The notes under the pieces: generated by a model | Databases searched by the model: none | What the model was told of the DNA's origin: nothing | What the model saw: the letters and a program-made list of their open reading frames with translations, nothing else | Source of the DNA: Escherichia coli | GTDB taxonomy: Bacteria > Pseudomonadota > Gammaproteobacteria > Enterobacterales > Enterobacteriaceae | Length of the DNA: 64,000 bases | Assembly: GCF_046105845.1 (NCBI RefSeq) | Contig: NZ_CP151004.1 | Direction: 5' to 3' (one strand) | Part shown: positions 22,423-54,593 of the stretch, in pieces | Layout of the letters: the number at the start of each line of letters is the position of its first letter | Numbering within the stretch: the first letter of the stretch is position 1 | Program-made: the position numbers and the translations under genes

Positions 22423-23552
22423 CAGAGCTGGAAGTTACTCAAATCGTCGGTGTCCACTTCCGAGTCAATCTGCCCGACCAGATAAGAACTGACTTCCACT
22501 TCCTGCGGAGCAACCTGCACGTTATCAGACACCAGCCAGGTATTGATCCACGGGATCGGGTTGGAGCGTGTCTGGAACGGCAGATCCAAACCGACTGCCT
22601 GCATACGGATATTGGTGATGTATTCAACGTACTGGCAGAGAATGTCTTTATTCAGACCAATCATCGAACCGTCACGGAACAGATAATCCGCCCAGTCTTT
22701 CTCTTGCTGTGCCGCCTGGACAAACAGGTCATAGCTCTCCTGCTTACATTCTTCGGCAATTTCCGCCATCTCCGGATCATCCGCACCGCTGCGCAGCAGA
22801 TTCAGCATATGCTGAGTACCGGTCAGGTGCAGGGCTTCGTCGCGGGCAATCAGGCGAATAATTTTGGCGTTACCTTCCATCAGTTCGCGTTCTGCAAAGG
22901 CAAAGGAACAAGCAAAGCTGACGTAGAAGCGGATCGCTTCCAGCGCGTTAACGCTCATCAGGCAGAGATACAGTTTTTTCTTCAGCTCGCGCAGGCTAAC
23001 GGTTACGGTTTTACCGTTAACGGTGTGGGTACCTTCGCCCAGCAGATGCCAGTAGCTGGTCATTTCGATCAGCTCATCGTAATAGCTGGAGATCCCTTCC
23101 GCACGTTTCTGGATCTGCTCGTTGGTGACGATATCATCAAACACAACGGACGGATCGTTAACGATATTACGAATGATATGGGTATAAGAACGAGAGTGAA
23201 TGGTTTCTGAGAACGCCCAGGTTTCGACCCAGGTTTCCAGTTCAGGGATCGAGATCAGCGGCAGCAGTGCCACGTTCGGGCTGCGACCCTGAATGGAGTC
23301 CAGCAACGTCTGATATTTCAGGTTGCTGATAAAGATGTGTTTTTCGTGTTCAGGCAGTGCCTGGTAATCGATACGGTCACGAGAAACGTCAACTTCTTCC
23401 GGACGCCAGAAGAAAGAGAGCTGCTTTTCGATCAGCTTTTCGAAGATGTCATATTTTTGCTGATCGTAGCGAGCCACGTTGACCGGCTGACCAAAGAACA
23501 TCGGTTCTTTCAGCTGATCATTTTTCGTCTGTGAAAAGGTGGTATATGCCAT
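22422..23552 (-). CDS. nrdB: Ribonucleoside-diphosphate reductase 1 beta subunit
   Basis: ATG at 23552 gives 376 aa ([22 protein letters not shown]...); the track ORF extends 5' into the REP region. Confidence 0.95.
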
Positions 23553-23575
23553 GAATGTGTCCTGTTGGGAGTTTA

Positions 23576-23690
23576 ATGCCGGATAAGGCATTTTACGCCG
23601 CATCCTGTGCCTGATGCGACGCTGGCGCGTCTTATCAGGCCTACAAATCCGAGCCGTAGGCCAGATAAGGCGTTCACGCCGCATCCGGCA
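23576..23690. repeat. REP/BIME cluster in the nrdA-nrdB intergenic region
   Basis: Inverted GCCGGATAAGGCxxxxACGCCGCATCCGGC-type units (REP consensus), at least two copies. Confidence 0.75.
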
Positions 23691-23698
23691 TCTCAAAA

Positions 23699-25984
23699 TC
23701 AGATCTTACATGCGCCGCTTTCGCAGCCATCGTCCTGGATTGACGGCACCAGATCGTCTTGTGCGTCTTCAGCACCGTCACGGGTGTTCTGATAATACAG
23801 CGTTTTAACCCCGAATTTGTAGGCGGTGAGCAGGTCTTTCAGCAGTTGCTGCATCGGCACTTTTCCTGACGGGAAGCGTGACGGATCGTAGTTGGTGTTA
23901 GCAGAGATCGACTGATCGATAAATTTCTGCATGATACCCACCAGTTGCAGATAGCCATCGTTACCCGGCATTTCCCACAGCAGTTCATAGGCGTCGTGCA
24001 GATGCTCGTAGTCCGGCACCACCTGGCGCAGAATACCGTCTTTCGACGCTTTGATGCTGACGTAACCACGCGGCGGTTCAATACCGTTAGTGGCGTTAGA
24101 GATCTGCGAAGAGGTCTCGGACGGCATCAGAGCAGAAAGCGTGGAGTTACGCAGGCCGTGCGTTTTGATTGACTCACGCAGTGCTTCCCAGTCGTAATGC
24201 AGCGGCTCATTAGCGATGGCATCCAGATCTTTCTTATAGGTATCGATCGGCAGGATCCCTTTCGCGTAAGTGGTTTCGTTAAACCACGGGCACGCGCCTT
24301 GCTCTTTCGCCAGCTCATTAGAGGCTTTCAGCAGGTAATACTGAATCGCTTCGAAGGTTTTATGCGTCAGGTTGTTGGCGCTGCCGTCGGAGTAGCGTTT
24401 ACCGTGCTTCGCCAGGTAGTAAGCGAAGTTGATCACTCCAATACCCAGCGTACGACGACCCATCGCTCCACGTTTGGCGGCCGGGATCGGGTAATCCTGA
24501 TAGTCCAGCAGCGCGTCGAGTGCGCGTACCGCCAGAATCGCCAGCTCTTCCAGTTCATCAAGGCTGTTAATTGCGCCCAGGTTGAAAGCAGACAACGTAC
24601 ACAGCGCGATTTCACCGTTCTCGTCGTTGACATCATTCAGCGGTTTGGTCGGCAGGGCGATTTCCAGGCACAGGTTAGACTGGCGCACTGGCGCGATGGC
24701 CGGATCAAACGGGCTATGGGTATTGCAGTGGTCAACGTTCTGAATATAGATACGACCGGTAGACGCACGTTCCTGCATCATCAGCGAGAACAGCTCAACG
24801 GCTTTCACACGCTGCTTGCGGATGCTGTCGTCTTTCTCATATTTGGTGTACAGGCGTTCAAACTCTTCCTGATCGGCGAAGAACGCGTCGTACAGCCCCG
24901 GTACGTCGGACGGGCTGAACAGGGTGATATCTTCACCTTTCAGCAGACGGGTATACATCAGTTTGTTGATTTGTACCCCGTAGTCCATATGACGCACGCG
25001 GTTGCCTTCCACCCCACGGTTGTTTTTCAACACCAGCAGGCTTTCCACTTCCAGATGCCACATCGGGTAGAACAGCGTAGCCGCACCGCCACGCACACCG
25101 CCCTGAGAGCAGGATTTCACCGCTGTCTGGAAATGCTTATAGAACGGAATACAACCGGTATGGAACGCTTCGCCACCGCGAATCGGGCTACCCAGCGCAC
25201 GAATACGCCCGGCATTGATGCCGATCCCGGCACGCTGGGAAACGTATTTAACAATCGCGCTGGAGGTGGCGTTAATGGAATCCAGGCTGTCACCGCACTC
25301 GATCAGTACGCAGGAGCTGAACTGACGAGTCGGGGTACGCACGCCGGACATGATTGGCGTCGGCAGCGAAATTTTAAATGTGGAAACCGCGTCGTAAAAA
25401 CGCTTCACGTATTGCAGGCGCGTTTCACGCGGGTAGTTCGAGAACAGGCACGCGGCAACCAGAATATAAAGGAACTGGGCGCTTTCGTAGATTTCGCCGG
25501 TCACACGGTTCTGCACCAGATATTTGCCTTCCAGCTGCTTAACGGCAGCATAAGAGAAGGTCATATCACGGTCGTGATCGATAAACGTGTCCATCTGCTT
25601 GAACTCTTCTTCCGTGTAGTCTTCCAGCAGATGATTATCGTATTTGCCCATCTCGACCATTTTCACCACGTGGTCGTACAGCGCAGGCGGCTCAAACTGG
25701 CCGTAGGCTTTTTTACGCAGGTGGAAGATTGCCAGGCGCGCGGCGAGATACTGATAATCCGGCGCATCACGGGAGATCAGGTCTGCGGCAGCCTTGATAA
25801 TGGTTTCGTGGATGTCAGAGGTCTTGATACCGTCATAAAACTGAATGTGGGAGCGCAGTTCGACCTGGGAAATCGAAACGTTATGCAGTCCTTCTGCCGC
25901 CCAATCCAGAACGCGATGGATTTTGTCGAGATTGATGCGCTCTGTGCTACCGTCGCGCTTTGTCACCAGCAGATTCTGATTCAT
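23699..25984 (-). CDS. nrdA: Ribonucleoside-diphosphate reductase 1 alpha subunit
   Basis: 761 aa; C-terminal redox tail CESGACKI. Confidence 0.96.
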
Positions 25985-26061
25985 GTATGTCGTACCTGTT
26001 TTTGGAATTCTTTCCGCAATAGTTTCGTGCAGACTACCTGTAGTACGGGAAGCTGCTTAGA

Positions 26062-26108
26062 ACACTATATATAGGGGGTATGTTTGGGATTCACTGCAAG
26101 ATAGTGTG
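26062..26108 (-). promoter_or_regulatory. Two NrdR boxes upstream of nrdA
   Basis: Minus strand reads CCCCCTATATATAGTGT (26062-26078) and CACACTATCTTGCAGTG (26092-26108), matching the NrdR box pair as I recall it. Confidence 0.6.
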
Positions 26109-26137
26109 AAAATGGCCCTCTTGCAAGTGCATAACTT

Positions 26138-26146
26138 TGTGGATAA
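26138..26146 (-). promoter_or_regulatory. DnaA box upstream of nrdA
   Basis: TGTGGATAA on the plus strand is a perfect TTATCCACA on the minus strand. Confidence 0.55.
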
Positions 26147-26679
26147 CTCAGGAAGGAAAAAGTGGCTTTCGCGCACCTTAGGTCAGACAAGGTGTCCGGG
26201 AAAGTCAATGGGAAGAGAAAAATTTGTTAAAAATAACTGTTCGGCGATTTCTTGAACGGAAGAATAGGTTAGATAAATTGATATAGATGGTTTATTAATC
26301 TTTTGGCTAATGATTGCAAAAATTGATCTAAGCACGAATCATCGCATAATCTGATGTATCAGTTCTGGTCAATATATAAGCGAATGTAAGCGATTGTTGA
26401 TATCGAAATGGTTGTTTTCTCTTCGGTTATTGTTAAATGCGAAGCCATTTTGTTAATTTACCTTATATTATAAGAAAATTATTCATTACTTTAATTCAGT
26501 TTAAATATAACTAATATCCCTTAAGGTGATTAACTTGAATTATGACGCACTGATATTATTCATGAAATAATAACAAAATAGCCATTGCACGGGGTTGAAC
26601 AATTTACAAAAGAAAAATAACCCATATCGTATAATGCGATTAAATATGCCGTCTTATAGAAAATGATGGTCAGATTAAT

Positions 26680-44789: not shown

Positions 44790-46112
44790 TCAGAACAGCG
44801 TTAAACCAATGACGAAAATGACGCCGGAGAAGAGCAGGGCAGTGATGCAATAGCCCATGATGTCGCGGACACCGAGTCCGGCGATTGCCAGTGCTGGCAG
44901 CGCCCAGAATGGTTGTGCCATGTTCATCCATTGCTCGCCGTAGGCGATCGCCATTACCGATTTACCGAGATCAGCGCCCAGCGCCTGGGCTGCGGGTATC
45001 ACGAAAGGTCCCTGAATAACCCAGTGACCGCCGCCAGACGGAACGGCGAAGTTAATCAGTGCAGAACTAAAAAAGGTCATTACCGGGAAGGTGTCTTTGT
45101 TCGCAACATTGATGAAGAATTCGGTAATGAGTCCGCCCAGACCGGAATGCTCCATCATCAGTTGGATCCCCGCGTAGAAGGGGAATTGCACCAGAATACC
45201 GGCAGTACTGCGTGCTGCCGCGCTGATAGCACGCATATAAGCCATTGGCGTTTTATGTAGCAGCAGACCCGCAATCATAAACATCAGGTTGACGGTATTG
45301 ATGGTGATGTTGAAGCCATGTTCGCTGAAGTACATCGCAAGGTAAGCGATACCGAGTGCGCCAATGATCAACGTCAGAATGCGGCTCTCTTCCAGTCGCT
45401 CGGATGGTGGGGCATCTTTCGGTAGCTGCTTTTGAAAATCAGCCTCTTCCATGAGTAGTTTCGGATCGATACTCACCACGTCAGACGGTTTTGGCATCAT
45501 CATGCGGGTGATAAATGGCATCACCACAATCAACGCCACAGTGATGAAAATGTTAAAACCACTGAACAGAGTATCGCCCACCGGGATCAGCCCGGCGATA
45601 TGCTCAACCGGGTTGCCCGGTGTTGCAGCCAACAGAGGCATTGAGCCAGAGAAACCGCCACCCCAGGTGAGAAAACCAATGTAGGCGCAGGCAATGAGCA
45701 ACGGATAATCAGAACCGGGTACTCGGCGGGCGACTTCACGGGCAAACATTGCGCCGACAACCAAACCAAATCCCCAGTTGATGACACAAGCGACTGAACC
45801 GAAGAAAGTAACCAGCATGACGCCCTGTACGGGCGTCTTTGCGGCGGAGGCGGCAGTACGCAGCAAACTTTTTACCGGAGCAGAGCTGGCAAGGGCATGA
45901 CCGGTAACGATGATAAGCGCCATCTGCATACCAAACGCCAGCAAGTTCCAGAAACCGTCACCCCACATTTTCACCATGCTGATCGGCGTTTGTGGTGTTA
46001 ACCAAAGCGCGATCACGAAAGTTAGCAATGTCAGCAACATGGCAAAGATCAGTGGATCGGGAAGCCACCGGCTGACAAAACGCGTCATAAAACGCGATAT
46101 GCGACCAATCAT
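44790..46112 (-). CDS. atoE: Short-chain fatty acid transporter
   Basis: 440-aa polytopic membrane protein in the ato operon position. Confidence 0.9.
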   Translation of the reverse strand: MIGRISRFMTRFVSRWLPDPLIFAMLLTLLTFVIALWLTPQTPISMVKMWGDGFWNLLAFGMQMALIIVTGHALASSAPVKSLLRTAASAAKTPVQGVMLVTFFGSVACVINWGFGLVVGAMFAREVARRVPGSDYPLLIACAYIGFLTWGGGFSGSMPLLAATPGNPVEHIAGLIPVGDTLFSGFNIFITVALIVVMPFITRMMMPKPSDVVSIDPKLLMEEADFQKQLPKDAPPSERLEESRILTLIIGALGIAYLAMYFSEHGFNITINTVNLMFMIAGLLLHKTPMAYMRAISAAARSTAGILVQFPFYAGIQLMMEHSGLGGLITEFFINVANKDTFPVMTFFSSALINFAVPSGGGHWVIQGPFVIPAAQALGADLGKSVMAIAYGEQWMNMAQPFWALPALAIAGLGVRDIMGYCITALLFSGVIFVIGLTLF

Positions 46113-46759
46113 AAATCACCCCGTTGCGTATTCAGATCGGCGGCAACTTCAAACCGAGCTTCTGTTTTGGCACACACGGTGGCTAAATCACACCCGTCGG
46201 CAATTTCGGTGAGCCACATTTTGCCGTCAATAAAACGAAAGACAGCCAGTTCAGTAACCAGCATATGCACCGCATGTTGCGCAGTGAGTGGCATGGTGCA
46301 GCGGCGCAAAATTTTTGCTGAACCATCTTTGGCACAATGTTCCATGGCGATGATCACTTTGCGCGACCCGGTCACCAGATCCATCGCGCCACCCATACCG
46401 GGCACCATTTTCCCAGGCACTACCCAGTTCGCGAGGTTTGCTTCTTCGTCTACTTGCAAACCGCCGAGCACGCAGGCATCAATATGACCGCCGCGGATTA
46501 GCGCAAATGACATGGCGCTATCAAACATGGCTGCACCGGGTAAAACACCGCACGGTTGTCCGCCAGCGTTCACCAGATCTGGATGCGCTGTCGTGACCGG
46601 GCCTAAACCGAGGAAGCCGTTTTCCGATTGCAGAGTGATATGAATACCCTCCGGTAAAAAATTGGCGACCATTGTGGGTAAACCGATCCCTAAGTTAACG
46701 ATGTCACCATCACGAAGCTCTTGCGCCACACGGCGCGCAATACGTTGTTTCGCATCCAT
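46109..46759 (-). CDS. atoA: Acetate CoA-transferase beta subunit
   Basis: 216 aa; overlaps the atoE start by 4 nt. Confidence 0.92.
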   Translation of the reverse strand: MDAKQRIARRVAQELRDGDIVNLGIGLPTMVANFLPEGIHITLQSENGFLGLGPVTTAHPDLVNAGGQPCGVLPGAAMFDSAMSFALIRGGHIDACVLGGLQVDEEANLANWVVPGKMVPGMGGAMDLVTGSRKVIIAMEHCAKDGSAKILRRCTMPLTAQHAVHMLVTELAVFRFIDGKMWLTEIADGCDLATVCAKTEARFEVAADLNTQRGDL

Positions 46760-47421
46760 TATTTGCTCTCCTGTGAAACGATGATGTGGTCGATAACGGC
46801 ACCAGGGGTGACAATATGGTCAGGTTGCAGCTCGCCGGTTTCGACCAGTTCATCTGGCTCTACCAGCGTGATATCAGCCGCAAGGGCTATCAGGGGGTTA
46901 AAGTTGCGGGCGCTAAGTTGATAGGTCAGGTTGCCAAGTGTGTCGCAACGATGAGCGCGAATTAGCGCCAGGTCGGCGCGCAGTGGGCGTTCGAGCAGCC
47001 AGGTTTTACCGTCGAGTGTCAGTGTCTGTTTGCCTTCCTCTACGACGGTGCCGACACCCGTTGGGGTGAGAAAACCACCAAGTCCAGCTCCACCACAGCG
47101 AATTTGCTCGATTAGCGTACCTTGCGGCACCAGAACGACGTCCATCTCACCAGATATCATGCGCCGACCTGTTTCCGGGTTGGTGCCGATATGTGAAGCA
47201 ATCACTTTGCGGACTCGACCATTGACGATGAGCGGACCGATGCCAGTATCAACAAACGCGGTATCATTGGCTATCAATGTCAGGTCGCGAACACCAGATT
47301 CCAGTAATGCTTCAACCAGGCGGGATGGAGTGCCAATCCCCATAAATCCGCCCACCATGATGGTCATGCTGTCACGAAAGAAGCCGGTGGCGTCTTGTAA
47401 TGTCATCAATTTTGTTTTCAT
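46759..47421 (-). CDS. atoD: Acetate CoA-transferase alpha subunit
   Basis: 220 aa; first gene of atoDAEB. Confidence 0.92.
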
Positions 47422-47466
47422 TTTTTATCCCTCTTGCATACACCGTTGTGGGTACAGTCAGGGAAT

Positions 47467-47482
47467 AGCAAGGGGAGTGCCA
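47467..47482 (-). promoter_or_regulatory. Sigma-54 (-24/-12) promoter of atoDAEB
   Basis: Minus strand reads TGGCAC-TCCCC-TTGCT, matching TGGCAC-N5-TTGCW, 46-61 nt upstream of the atoD ATG. Confidence 0.7.
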
Positions 47483-47564
47483 GAATGAGATTATTGGATT
47501 TAGTTATTTAACTAATTGAATAGAAAAGGATAAATTGGATGGGGATTTATAAGGAGAATGAGCG

Positions 47565-47605
47565 GCTATGCAGAAAATTGCGCACTGTGCAAATTTCTGC
47601 ATAGC
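47565..47605. promoter_or_regulatory. AtoC upstream activating sequence (41-bp palindrome)
   Basis: GCTATGCAGAAAATTGCGCACTGTGCAAATTTCTGCATAGC, a long inverted repeat about 100 nt upstream of the sigma-54 promoter. Confidence 0.7.
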
Positions 47606-47616
47606 AAGTTTTGGCG

Positions 47617-49002
47617 TTATACATCCGCCGGATCGATACCGTATTCCTGGAGTTTATACATCAATGCACGGCGACTGATGCCCAGCATTAAAGCAGTGCG
47701 GGTTCGGTTTCCTTCTTGTTGTTCCAGCACTTCCATAATGATGCGTTTTTCGACGCGTTTAATTTCCTCTTTTAAATTACGCTCACCGACAGGGGATGTT
47801 TTTACCTCGCCAGCATTACAGACTGGCTGACGAATCTGCGGCGGAAGATCCTCAGAAAAAATGATCGGGCCTGAGTTCATCACGACGGCGCGTTCAATAA
47901 CGTTGGAAAGCTCTCGAATATTTCCCGGCCATGACCAGGCGGTAAGCAGTGACATTGCCATCGGATCGATGTCGATAATATCGCGCTGATTCTCACTACT
48001 GAATTTTTGCAAAAAGTGATTAGCTAACAGGGAAATATCTTCCCGGCGATCGCGCAGAGGCGGCAGTATTAAATGAATAACGTTAAGGCGATAAAAGAGA
48101 TCTTCACGGAAGGTGCCTTCTTTTACCATTGCCTGCAAGTCACGGTTGGTGGCAGCAATGATGCGGATATCAACTTTTATGGTCTGATGGCCGCCAATCC
48201 GTTCAAATTCCCGTTCCTGCAGAATGCGTAGTAATTTGGCTTGCAGTACGAGCGGCATTTCGCCAATTTCGTCGAGGAGCAGAGTACCTTCGTTGGCACG
48301 TTCAAATAATCCCTGACGCAAGGTTTGTGCACCAGTAAATGCACCTTTTTCATGACCAAACAGTTCACTTTCGAGCAACGATTCCGGCAGCGCCGCGCAG
48401 TTGACTTTAATGAACGGCCCCTTTGCCCGCCGCGAATTGTAGTGAATCGCTCTGGCAATCAACTCTTTCCCGGTGCCGCTTTCACCGCTAATCAAGACGC
48501 TGGCCTGAGAAAGGGCAATTTTGGCGGTGTCTTTGCAGATGTCCATCATCGCCGGGCTGTTGGTGAGAATGTGCCCCCATTGCCAGCTGGTGCTCAGTGC
48601 CTGGTGCAGATGACGGATCTCTTTTTTCATTGACTGGAGTTGTAAAGCGCGCTGAACGATTAAATTCAACTCATCGAGATCAAACGGTTTGATAACATAG
48701 TCGAAGGCTCCGCAGCGTAGCGCTTCGACGGCGGTTTCCACTTCAGCATAGGCCGTCATCAGAATAACGGGTGTCCGGGTCTCATTACTGCGCATCTCCT
48801 TTAGTGCCTTGATGCCGTCCATCTCTGGCATGCGGATATCCATCAACACCACGTCAGGGTGAATATCGACAAACAGGTGTAATGCTGTGCGTCCGTTGTT
48901 CGCACAATGTGTTTCGAATCCTTGTAGTGCAAAAGCGGTGCTCAGCATACGGCGAACATTATCTTCATCATCCACAATAAGGATGCGATTAATAGCAGTC
49001 AT
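47617..49002 (-). CDS. atoC: NtrC-family sigma-54-dependent response regulator
   Basis: 461 aa; receiver domain, AAA+ Walker A GESGTGKE, GAFTGA motif, C-terminal HTH. Confidence 0.95.
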   Translation of the reverse strand: MTAINRILIVDDEDNVRRMLSTAFALQGFETHCANNGRTALHLFVDIHPDVVLMDIRMPEMDGIKALKEMRSNETRTPVILMTAYAEVETAVEALRCGAFDYVIKPFDLDELNLIVQRALQLQSMKKEIRHLHQALSTSWQWGHILTNSPAMMDICKDTAKIALSQASVLISGESGTGKELIARAIHYNSRRAKGPFIKVNCAALPESLLESELFGHEKGAFTGAQTLRQGLFERANEGTLLLDEIGEMPLVLQAKLLRILQEREFERIGGHQTIKVDIRIIAATNRDLQAMVKEGTFREDLFYRLNVIHLILPPLRDRREDISLLANHFLQKFSSENQRDIIDIDPMAMSLLTAWSWPGNIRELSNVIERAVVMNSGPIIFSEDLPPQIRQPVCNAGEVKTSPVGERNLKEEIKRVEKRIIMEVLEQQEGNRTRTALMLGISRRALMYKLQEYGIDPADV

Positions 49003-50825
49003 ACAGTCTGATTTCCCTGCGGGTTGATCGGTAAAATAAGCGTGAAGGTTGCGCCGTAGCCCGGCAAACTGGCGACGCGAATATCACCCTGATGGGCATT
49101 AATGATGCGTTGACTTAACGCCAGACCAAGCCCGGTTCCTGAGGCTTTGGTGGTGAAAAAGGGATCGAAGATCTTTTTTTGCAGCGAGAGATCAATGCCA
49201 CAGCCGTTGTCCTCTATCGAAATGGCCTGTTGTGAGTCGCTGTATTGCCAGGTTTGAATGCGAATTTTCCCTCGTGCGCTGATAGCCTGGACGGCATTGA
49301 TCAGGATATTCAGTAGTACCTGTTTGAGCAGTTCACGATCGGCGTTAATCGGGTTTAATTCATTATCCAGTTCGCTTATGAAGTCGACCCGCGCTTGTAC
49401 GCCAGCGGTTTGTACCAGTACCAGAGTTTCTTCAACCAATGCATTGAGGCTGACTTGTTGCCATTGACTGTGGCGTGGACGTGAAAATTCGAGCAATTGC
49501 TGAATAACTTTGTTAATTGAATCGATTTCTTTGAGTACTACGGACAGATATTCCTGATGTATTGGGTCACCGGTTTGTTGGCGCAAGATCTGTACATAAC
49601 CACGAATAGCCGTTAGCGGATTACGTACTTCATGCGCGACGCCAGCCATCAGCTCACCCAGTGTGGCGAGGCGTTCTGCTTGCGCCATGCGGCGCTGGGT
49701 TTCTTTGCGGGCAGTTAAATCAGAGAAAATCACCAAAGCACCTATCATTTCACCATGCGTGTTATGAATACGACTGGTAGTGACACTGAGTTCAATGGTG
49801 CGGTCACGGCCTGGAAAACTGATCTCCAGCGCTACATGTTCGGTGCCATGTTCCAGCGTATCCAGTACTGGACTGTAGAACTGAGTATGGTCGAACAACA
49901 TGGAGTAAGGCTGCCCTACCAGTTCATGACGTTGATAGCCAGTGATGACTTCTGCTGCCGGGTTCATGGTGGTTACATCACCCTGGCGGTCAATGGCAAT
50001 GACGCCATCGGCAGCGTTTTCAATAATCAGATCGTTGAGTGTCCGCGTTTCACGCAGTGCCTGGGCGAGGTTGTTAACACTCTGACTGATTTGCCCCATT
50101 TCACCGGGCAATTGTGGTAATCGAGTGGGAATATTTTGCGCCAGAGTCGAGAGGCCATCGGTGATGATATCAATATTGGCGCTCAGGCGACGGGAGAAAA
50201 GGACAATCAACAGCAGGCTTATCAGCAAACCGGCGGTGAGCACAATGATAATCCTCACATCCATTCTCCAGGCCTGGCGGCGAATATCTTCGGTTAATTC
50301 ATTGGCCCAGATATAGCCGAGGATTTCACCATTACGCTCAATGGGGAGCATTGAATTCAAAATATCGCCGCGCACCTGCCTGCCTGAATAAACCAAAGGG
50401 GTATTTGTACGCATGACTTCGCGACCAGGGTGATCTGCGGCAATGGTAACGCCGACATTATTCTGATATAGCGCTGAAGGCGCGTAGGTGATTATCGCAT
50501 CCAGCGTTTTGTTGTAATAACCAGCGCCGATGCCAGGGAAGGCGTGAGTGATATTTTCGGTAATGGGGGCAAGTTCTGCATTTAATGCGCGGATACGCTC
50601 CTCACGTGGTAAGTCGATGTAGAGATCATAGCGATCGCCTAGTGCCTGATTAAGCAGGTTGACCACGGCAGAAAGTTTTTTCTCTTTTTCAGATAAGACT
50701 GCTGAACGTCCTTCCGTTTCTACGATATAACCAATAGTAAGCGTTGGGACAATGACCATCAGGATTGCCATCAGGATCATTTGATTGCGTAAGCGGCGTG
50801 GATAAATCCACTTCATATAATGCAT
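48999..50825 (-). CDS. atoS: Sensor histidine kinase
   Basis: ATG at 50825 gives 608 aa; two TM segments, PAS, H-box (GVAHEVRNPL) and ATPase domain; overlaps the atoC start by 4 nt. Confidence 0.92.
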   Translation of the reverse strand: MHYMKWIYPRRLRNQMILMAILMVIVPTLTIGYIVETEGRSAVLSEKEKKLSAVVNLLNQALGDRYDLYIDLPREERIRALNAELAPITENITHAFPGIGAGYYNKTLDAIITYAPSALYQNNVGVTIAADHPGREVMRTNTPLVYSGRQVRGDILNSMLPIERNGEILGYIWANELTEDIRRQAWRMDVRIIIVLTAGLLISLLLIVLFSRRLSANIDIITDGLSTLAQNIPTRLPQLPGEMGQISQSVNNLAQALRETRTLNDLIIENAADGVIAIDRQGDVTTMNPAAEVITGYQRHELVGQPYSMLFDHTQFYSPVLDTLEHGTEHVALEISFPGRDRTIELSVTTSRIHNTHGEMIGALVIFSDLTARKETQRRMAQAERLATLGELMAGVAHEVRNPLTAIRGYVQILRQQTGDPIHQEYLSVVLKEIDSINKVIQQLLEFSRPRHSQWQQVSLNALVEETLVLVQTAGVQARVDFISELDNELNPINADRELLKQVLLNILINAVQAISARGKIRIQTWQYSDSQQAISIEDNGCGIDLSLQKKIFDPFFTTKASGTGLGLALSQRIINAHQGDIRVASLPGYGATFTLILPINPQGNQTV

Positions 50826-50991
50826 GCTGAAATCCACTAGTCTTGTCCGGTATATGACGATTATCAGAGGTTAAGGTGATGATTTCTCGGCGGTGTATCA
50901 TATTCCAGAGAAGAGAGAACATTGCGGTAACACGCTTTTACCGCTACCTTAACCACACTCCATCGGTCACCTGAGGCGGAGCTTCGCCCCT

Positions 50992-53841
50992 TTGAAATAC
51001 CTTGCTTCTTTTCGTACAACCCTGAAAGCCTCGCGCTACATGTTCAGAGCATTGGCGTTAGTGCTCTGGCTGTTGATTGCTTTTTCATCCGTTTTTTACA
51101 TCGTTAATGCGTTACATCAGCGAGAATCGGAAATTCGTCAGGAATTTAATCTGAGTTCCGATCAGGCTCAGCGCTTTATTCAACGTACCTCTGATGTGAT
51201 GAAAGAGCTGAAGTACATCGCTGAAAATCGCTTATCGGCAGAAAACGGTGTGCTTTCCCCGCGTGGACGAGAAACGCAGGCGGATGTGCCTGCGTTTGAA
51301 CCGCTGTTTGCCGACTCCGATTGTTCCGCAATGAGTAACACCTGGCGAGGCTCTCTGGAGTCATTGGCGTGGTTTATGCGCTACTGGCGCGATAATTTCT
51401 CTGCGGCTTACGATCTCAACCGGGTATTTTTAATCGGCAGCGATAACCTCTGCATGGCCAATTTCGGTCTGCGTGATATGCCAGTGGAACGCGATACCGC
51501 GTTGAAAGCGTTGCATGAACGCATTAATAAATATCGAAATGCACCACAAGATGATAGTGGCAGTAACCTCTACTGGATCAGCGAAGGTCCGCGCCCTGGC
51601 GTCGGGTATTTTTACGCGTTGACGCCAGTTTATCTGGCGAACCGGTTGCAGGCGCTTTTGGGTGTCGAGCAGACTATCCGGATGGAGAATTTTTTCTTAC
51701 CTGGTACGTTGCCGATGGGGGTTACCATTCTTGATGAAAATGGTCATACCCTGATTTCGCTTACCGGACCAGAAAGCAAAATTAAGGGCGATCCTCGCTG
51801 GATGCAGGAACGCTCCTGGTTTGGCTATACGGAAGGTTTCCGGGAGCTGGTGCTGAAGAAAAATCTGCCTCCCTCATCGCTAAGCATCGTTTATTCGGTG
51901 CCGGTTGATAAGGTGCTGGAACGCATTCGCATGTTGATCCTTAACGCAATTTTGCTGAATGTGCTTGCCGGAGCTGCATTGTTTACTCTCGCGCGGATGT
52001 ACGAGCGGCGTATTTTCATTCCGGCGGAAAGCGACGCCTTGCGACTGGAAGAACATGAGCAGTTTAATCGCAAGATTGTCGCCTCCGCGCCAGTGGGTAT
52101 CTGCATTTTGCGTACCGCTGATGGCGTCAATATTTTAAGTAACGAACTGGCGCATACCTATCTCAATATGCTTACGCATGAGGACCGCCAACGGCTGACA
52201 CAAATTATCTGTGGGCAGCAGGTCAATTTTGTTGATGTCCTGACCAGTAACAATACCAATCTGCAAATCAGCTTCGTCCATTCGCGCTATCGTAATGAAA
52301 ACGTGGCCATTTGTGTGCTGGTGGATGTTTCTTCGCGCGTGAAGATGGAAGAGTCGTTGCAGGAGATGGCACAAGCAGCGGAACAGGCGAGCCAGTCAAA
52401 ATCGATGTTCCTTGCCACCGTCAGTCATGAGCTGCGAACGCCGCTGTATGGCATTATCGGTAACCTGGATCTGTTGCAAACCAAAGAGTTACCGAAAGGC
52501 GTCGATCGTCTGGTGACGGCAATGAACAACTCTTCCAGCCTGTTGTTGAAAATTATCAGCGATATTCTCGACTTCTCGAAGATTGAATCGGAACAGTTGA
52601 AGATCGAACCACGTGAGTTTTCACCGCGTGAAGTGATGAACCACATCACCGCCAACTATTTGCCGCTGGTGGTACGCAAGCAGCTAGGCTTGTACTGCTT
52701 TATTGAACCGGATGTGCCAGTGGCCTTAAATGGCGACCCAATGCGTTTACAGCAGGTCATCTCCAACCTGTTGAGTAACGCCATAAAATTCACCGATACC
52801 GGCTGTATAGTTCTGCATGTTCGCGCTGATGGCGATTATCTCTCTATCCGCGTTCGCGATACCGGCGTGGGTATTCCAGCGAAAGAAGTGGTGCGCTTGT
52901 TTGATCCCTTCTTCCAGGTCGGAACGGGCGTACAGCGTAACTTCCAGGGGACCGGTCTGGGGCTGGCGATTTGTGAAAAACTGATCAGCATGATGGACGG
53001 CGACATCTCGGTAGATTCAGAACCGGGAATGGGCAGCCAGTTTACCGTGCGTATTCCGTTGTACGGCGCTCAGTACCCGCAGAAAAAAGGCGTGGAAGGG
53101 TTGAGTGGTAAACGCTGCTGGCTGGCGGTCCGCAATGCGTCGCTCTGTCAGTTCCTGGAAACCAGTTTGCAGCGCAGCGGCATCGTCGTTACAACATACG
53201 AAGGGCAGGAACCGACTCCCGAAGATGTGTTAATCACTGACGAGGTAGTGAACAAAAAATGGCAGGGTAGAGCGGTAGTGACCTTCTGTCGTCGCCATAT
53301 TGGTATTCCGCTGGAGAAAGCGCCAGGGGAGTGGGTACACAGTGTGGCTGCCCCGCATGAGCTACCGGCATTGTTGGCGCGTATTTATTTGATCGAGATG
53401 GAGAGCGACGATCCTGCTAACGCTCTGCCGTCGACGGACAAAGCGGTCAGCGATAACGACGATATGATGATTCTGGTCGTGGATGATCATCCGATTAACC
53501 GGCGTCTTCTGGCAGATCAGTTGGGATCGTTGGGCTATCAATGTAAAACCGCGAATGATGGCGTCGATGCGCTTAATGTACTTAGCAAGAATCATATTGA
53601 TATCGTGCTTAGCGACGTCAACATGCCAAATATGGATGGTTACCGCTTGACGCAACGCATTCGTCAGTTGGGACTGACGTTGCCGGTAATCGGAGTAACT
53701 GCTAATGCGTTGGCTGAAGAGAAGCAGCGGTGTCTGGAGTCCGGTATGGACAGCTGCCTGTCGAAGCCGGTAACGCTGGATGTGATAAAACAGACGCTAA
53801 CGGTATATGCCGAGAGGGTCAGGAAATCGCGGGATTCGTAG
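50992..53841 (+). CDS. rcsC: Hybrid sensor histidine kinase of the Rcs phosphorelay
   Basis: 949 aa; H-box SHELRTPL, ATPase domain, C-terminal receiver domain. Confidence 0.95.
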   Translation: MKYLASFRTTLKASRYMFRALALVLWLLIAFSSVFYIVNALHQRESEIRQEFNLSSDQAQRFIQRTSDVMKELKYIAENRLSAENGVLSPRGRETQADVPAFEPLFADSDCSAMSNTWRGSLESLAWFMRYWRDNFSAAYDLNRVFLIGSDNLCMANFGLRDMPVERDTALKALHERINKYRNAPQDDSGSNLYWISEGPRPGVGYFYALTPVYLANRLQALLGVEQTIRMENFFLPGTLPMGVTILDENGHTLISLTGPESKIKGDPRWMQERSWFGYTEGFRELVLKKNLPPSSLSIVYSVPVDKVLERIRMLILNAILLNVLAGAALFTLARMYERRIFIPAESDALRLEEHEQFNRKIVASAPVGICILRTADGVNILSNELAHTYLNMLTHEDRQRLTQIICGQQVNFVDVLTSNNTNLQISFVHSRYRNENVAICVLVDVSSRVKMEESLQEMAQAAEQASQSKSMFLATVSHELRTPLYGIIGNLDLLQTKELPKGVDRLVTAMNNSSSLLLKIISDILDFSKIESEQLKIEPREFSPREVMNHITANYLPLVVRKQLGLYCFIEPDVPVALNGDPMRLQQVISNLLSNAIKFTDTGCIVLHVRADGDYLSIRVRDTGVGIPAKEVVRLFDPFFQVGTGVQRNFQGTGLGLAICEKLISMMDGDISVDSEPGMGSQFTVRIPLYGAQYPQKKGVEGLSGKRCWLAVRNASLCQFLETSLQRSGIVVTTYEGQEPTPEDVLITDEVVNKKWQGRAVVTFCRRHIGIPLEKAPGEWVHSVAAPHELPALLARIYLIEMESDDPANALPSTDKAVSDNDDMMILVVDDHPINRRLLADQLGSLGYQCKTANDGVDALNVLSKNHIDIVLSDVNMPNMDGYRLTQRIRQLGLTLPVIGVTANALAEEKQRCLESGMDSCLSKPVTLDVIKQTLTVYAERVRKSRDS

Positions 53842-53842
53842 G

Positions 53843-53920
53843 ACGGATAAGGCGTTTACGCCGCATCTGGCATTCAGTGCAAATGCCAGATGCGACGCTG
53901 ACGCGTCTTATCTGGCCTAC
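53843..53920. repeat. REP element pair downstream of rcsC
   Basis: GGATAAGGCGTTTACGCCGCATCTGGC and inverted partner. Confidence 0.75.
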
Positions 53921-53926
53921 AGATGA

Positions 53927-54577
53927 TTAGTCTTTATCTGCCGGACTTAAGGTCACAGAAGAGAGATAATTCAGCAGAGCAATATCGTTCTCGACACCCA
54001 GCTTCATCATCGCAGATTTCTTCTGGCTACTGATGGTTTTGATACTGCGGTTCAGCTTTTTAGCGATCTCGGTCACTAGGAAACCTTCCGCAAACAGGCG
54101 TAGAACTTCACTCTCTTTTGGCGAGAGACGCTTGTCACCGTAACCACCAGCACTGATTTTTTCCAACAGGCGAGAAACGCTTTCCGGGGTAAATTTCTTC
54201 CCTTTCTGCAGCGCGGCGAGAGCTTTCGGCAGATCGGTCGGTGCACCTTGTTTCAGCACGATCCCTTCGATATCCAGATCCAATACCGCACTAAGAATCG
54301 CCGGGTTGTTGTTCATAGTCAGAACAATGATCGACAGGCTTGGGAAATGGCGCTTGATGTACTTGATTAAGGTAATGCCATCGCCGTACTTATCGCCAGG
54401 CATGGAGAGATCGGTAATCAACACATGCGCATCCAGTTTCGGCAGGTTGTTGATCAGTGCTGTAGAGTCTTCAAATTCGCCGACAACATTCACCCACTCA
54501 ATTTGCTCAAGTGATTTGCGAATACCGAACAAGACTATCGGATGGTCATCGGCAATAATTACGTTCATATTGTTCAT
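53927..54577 (-). CDS. rcsB: Response regulator RcsB (LuxR/FixJ family)
   Basis: ATG at 54577 gives 216 aa (MNNMNVIIADDHPIVLFGIR...); C-terminal LuxR HTH. Confidence 0.95.
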   Translation of the reverse strand: MNNMNVIIADDHPIVLFGIRKSLEQIEWVNVVGEFEDSTALINNLPKLDAHVLITDLSMPGDKYGDGITLIKYIKRHFPSLSIIVLTMNNNPAILSAVLDLDIEGIVLKQGAPTDLPKALAALQKGKKFTPESVSRLLEKISAGGYGDKRLSPKESEVLRLFAEGFLVTEIAKKLNRSIKTISSQKKSAMMKLGVENDIALLNYLSSVTLSPADKD

Positions 54578-54593
54578 GTAATAGGCTACCTTG

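Follow-up and report, generated by a model that had tools for sequence, protein, structure and literature searches.

The atoC-atoD spacer of Escherichia coli as an AtoC-activated, sigma-54-dependent control region: sequence elements and their conservation

Apart from the same locus in K-12, the closest described relatives of the system considered here are the NtrC-dependent promoter glnAp2 and the IHF-assisted sigma-54 promoters such as nifH. Their layout is well established: dyad enhancer sites lie about 100-150 bp upstream of a GG-N10-GC promoter, the DNA in between is AT-rich or bent by IHF, and the activator combines receiver, AAA+ and HTH domains. The control region of the atoDAEB operon shares each of these traits, and is set apart by the sequence of its enhancer, whose half-sites can be read as TGCA-N6-TGCA, and by its signal, acetoacetate acting through AtoS. 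For the AtoSC two-component system it is a textbook case, of little import beyond correct annotation. Here, we describe how it appears in a 64-kb stretch of an E. coli chromosome (the window), where an initial annotation had been made from the sequence alone. Nothing about this feature is new: it is the K-12 locus, with element sequences identical to those published. Compared with the K-12 atoDAEB promoter (Matta et al. 2007; Pilalis et al. 2011, PMC3118216), the locus, the flanking genes and the distances of the elements from atoD are all the same.

The genes on both sides of the spacer are those expected of such a system. On the minus strand, atoC (47617..49002, 461 aa; identified by Pfam and by collinear genome annotation) encodes an NtrC-family response regulator with Response_reg, Sigma54_activat, AAA_lid_14 and HTH_8 domains, the last being a Fis-type HTH. 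The protein matches PF00158 with E = 1.5e-75, as befits a cognate sigma-54 enhancer-binding protein, and RefSeq names the corresponding gene atoC in collinear genomes; the NtrC-type activator that the initial annotation had placed immediately upstream of atoD is thus borne out. An open reading frame for a HAMP/PAS histidine kinase (48999..50837, Pfam), atoS, precedes atoC. On the other side lies atoD (46759..47421, minus strand, 220 aa; Pfam CoA_trans and annotation), the acetate CoA-transferase alpha subunit gene and the first gene of atoDAEB, and after it the list of open reading frames gives atoA, atoE and atoB, reaching 43575. The atoS, atoC and atoD genes are intact and carry the expected domains. 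Considering the sequences themselves, their identity with K-12, the domains of the proteins and the conservation across species, all of which were observed directly, the region is almost certainly the control region of atoDAEB, an enhancer-dependent sigma-54 promoter activated by AtoC. No evidence contradicting this AtoC/sigma-54 model was found in the analysis.

The upstream activating sequence is a 41-bp palindrome at 47565..47605, which is given no strand. A repeat finder resolves it into 20-nt arms at 47565-47584 and 47586-47605 that are 90% (18/20) complementary and separated by a 1-nt gap, the centre base being 47585; in the minus-strand reading, from 47605 to 47565, it runs GCTATGCAGAAATTTGCACA-G-TGCGCAATTTTCTGCATAGC. 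The palindrome starts 11 nt past the atoC stop codon (47619..47617), and is separated from the promoter by a gap of 82 bp (47483..47564), or about 110 bp from centre to centre, which makes the earlier description of it as lying about 100 nt further upstream a fair one. Each arm is a half-site, GCTATGCAGAAATTTGCACA in the distal position (47586..47605, minus strand) and GCTATGCAGAAAATTGCGCA in the proximal position (47565..47584, plus strand). When the half-site pattern was searched for across the window with up to three mismatches, only these two arms matched, where shuffled sequences lead one to expect 0.04 matches and no shuffle reached two. The half-sites can be read as TGCA-N6-TGCA, except that the proximal arm has CGCA as its inner block. 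On this reading the four TGCA-like blocks of the palindrome follow one another at spacings of 10, 9 and 10 bp on one face of the helix, a layout that would suit two AtoC dimers.

What is known of the function of this palindrome comes from the literature on K-12. A 40-bp palindrome is an experimentally verified AtoC site (PMC3118216, citing Matta et al. 2007), and AtoC binds the K-12 sequence both in vivo, by ChIP, and in EMSA (PMC3118216). Table 5 of the same paper lists GCTATGCAGAAATTTGCACA at -184..-165 and GCTATGCAGAAAATTGCGCA at -163..-144 from atoD, with in vivo AtoC binding positive, and the palindrome elements are described there as governing the acetoacetate inducibility of atoDAEB. 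Counted from the atoD ATG at 47421, the two arms in the window have exactly the sequences and positions of that table. The initial annotation had quoted the palindrome with correct sequences, coordinates and distances, and its proposal that this is the upstream activating sequence for AtoC is supported by the match to verified sites in both sequence and distance from atoD.

An ortholog scan of species-representative genomes with AtoC as the query returned mostly distant NtrC-family paralogues; only loci L003-L008 were orthologous and usable, from five Citrobacter species (AtoC identity 83-86%) and one divergent Escherichia (90%). Mean pairwise identities were computed from the aligned atoC-atoD spacers with K-12 excluded, and are 0.90 for the palindrome, 0.81 for the -24/-12 element, 0.75 for a 13-bp IHF-like block, and 0.87 for the atoD leader, with 0.47 and 0.48 for the two intervening spacers. 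The strict palindrome pattern occurs in Escherichia and in four of the five Citrobacter loci; in the fifth, the proximal (3') arm is altered at its outer end. None of the other 74 loci retrieved has the pattern, and these include all those whose AtoC-like match is at or below 56% identity. The complementarity of the arms is kept in 91% of the alignment cells, whereas shifting the register lowers this to 26-61%, and at 2 of 20 positions changes on both arms preserve the dyad symmetry. The retained complementarity and the paired changes together indicate that the dyad of the palindrome is under selection. This cross-species footprint gives modest independent support to the published AtoC site.

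Does selection on the dyad act through DNA or through RNA? The palindrome begins 11 nt past the atoC stop codon and would be transcribed on the sense strand. Its main or additional role might be to form a hairpin in the RNA where the atoSC mRNA ends, acting as a terminator or a 3' stabiliser. The predicted RNA fold is strong (-24.8 kcal/mol, z-score -4.8, with none of 200 shuffles folding as well), and the changes on both arms that keep them complementary are a pattern that a hairpin would show as well. However, the stem is not followed by a U-run in E. coli or in Citrobacter, and a terminator scan of the region does not call the palindrome, the only candidate that it returns being a weak one on the plus strand inside atoD, which was judged irrelevant. 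Moreover, an A/C mispair near the palindrome centre (alignment columns 77/83) is invariant in 8 of 8 sequences, and this conserved asymmetry fits a protein site with asymmetric contacts better than a simple hairpin. The binding of AtoC to the palindrome DNA is itself reported as experimentally verified (PMC3118216). The hairpin reading is unlikely, and the palindrome is best viewed as the AtoC enhancer.

The promoter that this enhancer would serve, CTGGCAC-N5-TTGCT at 47467..47483 on the minus strand, was identified from its exact match to the consensus, its conservation and a published ChIP-seq motif. On the minus strand it consists of TGGCAC (47482..47477), the spacer TCCCC (47476..47472) and TTGCT (47471..47467), so that the -24 GG falls at 47481-47480 and the -12 GC at 47469-47468, the two dinucleotides being 10 bp apart as in sigma-54 promoters. 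The element TGGCAC-N5-TTGCT lies 46-61 nt 5' of the atoD ATG (47421) and in the same orientation as atoD; the initial annotation had given its sequence, strand and position correctly. How much weight can such a match bear? Across the 64-kb window, TGGCAC-N5-TTGCW is matched exactly only once, at 47482..47467, where shuffles lead one to expect 0.13 matches. Because one-mismatch matches are not enriched in the window (4 observed, 3.4 expected), the motif alone is modest evidence, and the weight for a sigma-54 promoter is carried instead by position and conservation.

The published data on K-12 agree. In a sigma-54 ChIP-seq study (PMC4591121), CTGGCACTCCCCTTGCT, 5' of atoD, is a sigma-54 site in K-12 under motif OS21, identical to the promoter in the window, and the table entry for atoD there gives the distance as 35 and is flagged 'C'. 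A gSELEX analysis with RpoN holoenzyme shows a peak in the atoC-atoD spacer (PMC8743547), and expression of atoDAEB is stated to be sigma-54 dependent (PMC3118216). Together with the K-12-identical promoter, these three sources support the claim of the initial annotation that sigma-54 controls the operon. That sigma-54 binds here only by chance or without productive effect, and that atoDAEB is driven from a sigma-70 promoter, is extremely improbable: although at least one exact match arises in 13 of 100 shuffled windows and sigma-54 binding is widespread and often intragenic according to PMC4591121, the element stands in the right place and orientation before atoD and beside the gene for a sigma-54 activator, its TGGCA and TTGC show no change in Citrobacter next to a spacer that has diverged, a promoter scan finds no sigma-70-like promoter in 47300..47800, and the statement of sigma-54 dependence applies to this very operon.

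Where would transcription from the sigma-54 promoter begin? Sigma-54 promoters in general start transcription about 12 nt downstream of the GC. The 2007 study of Matta et al. (J Bacteriol 189:6324) reportedly found a DNase I footprint at -146..-107 relative to the start site. If -146 corresponds to 47605, the first base of the palindrome, then the start would be 47459, only 9-10 nt past the -12 GC and thus slightly nearer to it than is canonical. We infer a start zone at 47456..47459 on the minus strand, about 9-12 nt past the -12 GC and 35-38 nt before the ATG, from the geometry of sigma-54 promoters and from the 35 that PMC4591121 lists for atoD.

The DNA between the palindrome and the promoter contains a third element, which is the sole thing that the initial annotation missed. 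This IHF-like site, ATTCAATTAGTTA at 47509..47521 on the minus strand, has one mismatch to WATCAANNNNTTR, coincides with an island of conservation in an AT-rich spacer, and is the sole near-consensus IHF core between enhancer and promoter. The GC content around it is 0.20-0.30, and some 50-65 nt separate it from the predicted start downstream. Chance alone readily yields IHF matches with one mismatch (63 observed in the window and 56 expected), and for this reason we regard the assignment as inferred; the sequence at 47521..47509 is probably an IHF site. IHF is reportedly needed for induction, according to the same 2007 study by Matta et al. A literature search on atoDAEB or AtoC with IHF (integration host factor) yielded nothing useful.

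Taken together, these elements point to the classic NtrC-type course of enhancer-dependent sigma-54 activation. Sigma-54 RNA polymerase would occupy the -24/-12 element at 47483..47467 as a closed complex. On sensing acetoacetate, AtoS phosphorylates AtoC. Phospho-AtoC would then bind the palindrome at 47605..47565, some 110 bp from the promoter on its upstream side; presumably two dimers bind there and seed assembly of the active AAA+ oligomer. Bending of the AT-rich spacer, probably by IHF at 47521..47509, would bring AtoC to the polymerase, and ATP hydrolysis by AtoC could then remodel sigma-54 and open the promoter, such that the atoDAEB transcript begins at about 47456-47459. AtoC binding, acetoacetate inducibility and sigma-54 binding are taken here from the literature, and the architecture of the AtoC oligomer, the IHF site and the exact start point are putative parts of the scheme. 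A reader without tools could recover a real enhancer and sigma-54 promoter pair from raw sequence, and comparison between species adds a likely IHF site and a conserved leader.

The atoD leader, 47422..47455 on the minus strand, was delimited by conservation and by a consensus hairpin, and contains a Shine-Dalgarno sequence, AAGAGGGA, at 47435..47428 (minus strand). Its identity of 0.87 between Escherichia and Citrobacter is nearly at the level of coding sequence. The hairpin, GUACCC...GG(N)GUAU at 47455..47438 on the minus strand, has an alifold consensus energy of -6.8 kcal/mol. The core stem-loop has substitutions in its loop and bulge, no fully compensatory change in the stem occurs among the aligned loci, and a search of the atoC-atoD spacer against Rfam finds no RNA family. 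Perhaps the leader hairpin carries some undescribed post-transcriptional control, or the palindrome doubles as a 3' hairpin on the atoSC mRNA, but we consider it quite doubtful that either is the case. If the palindrome did form such a hairpin, the stability of the regulator mRNA, or read-through into atoDAEB, would be tied to that one sequence.

The palindrome and the -24/-12 element align base for base with those of K-12 MG1655. The 195-bp atoC-atoD intergenic region as a whole has four single-base differences from K-12, and a fifth difference lies 3 nt past the atoC stop codon. Three of the four are clustered at 47523-47527 (47523, 47524 and 47527), adjoining the IHF-like site, and these private substitutions immediately 5' of its core replace CCCTTCATATT of K-12 with CCTTTTCTATT in the window. 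At 47463, just downstream of the -12 element, the window has C and K-12 has G; the C is also found in E. coli MEI003, in the divergent Escherichia and in all five Citrobacter loci. Among 5426 complete E. coli genomes the region is found in 3905 at 95-99% identity, and in the records listed the match covers genes annotated atoC and atoD. Over the 321-bp atoC-atoD stretch, none of the 5426 is more than 98.8% identical to the window. That the spacer variants mark an origin outside E. coli was considered and rejected, in view of 98.2% identity and collinearity over 40 kb with an E. coli chromosome and of 99.4% identity across the 12-kb ato region.

That 12-kb region is collinear as well as 99.4% identical with E. 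coli chromosomes, in whose annotation the order is rcsC / atoS-atoC / atoD-atoA-atoE-atoB / yfaP-yfaQ. On a larger scale, positions 23423..64000 of the window keep the gene order of E. coli MEI003, which starts at nrdB/nrdA, passes the ato genes, rcsCBD and ompC, and reaches yojI. Several features of this neighbourhood were observed in passing. The antisense sRNA MicF (Rfam RF00033, 116.8 bits) is found at 57578..57671 on the minus strand; it lies upstream of ompC (58005..59132, plus strand) and points away from it, which is the arrangement expected in E. coli. A match to naRNA4 (RF02564, 73.8 bits) at 53841..53917 on the plus strand falls in the gap between rcsC and rcsB, and begins at the final base of the listed rcsC open reading frame. 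Between yfaT and yfaQ, at 36451..41070 on the plus strand, a single open reading frame of 1539 aa represents a gene of the alpha-2-macroglobulin family, intact in the window and likewise in MEI003. Finally, the nrdB-nrdA gap, 23565..23698, exceeds that of MEI003 by about 58 bp, and a megablast alignment of the two is interrupted at that point.
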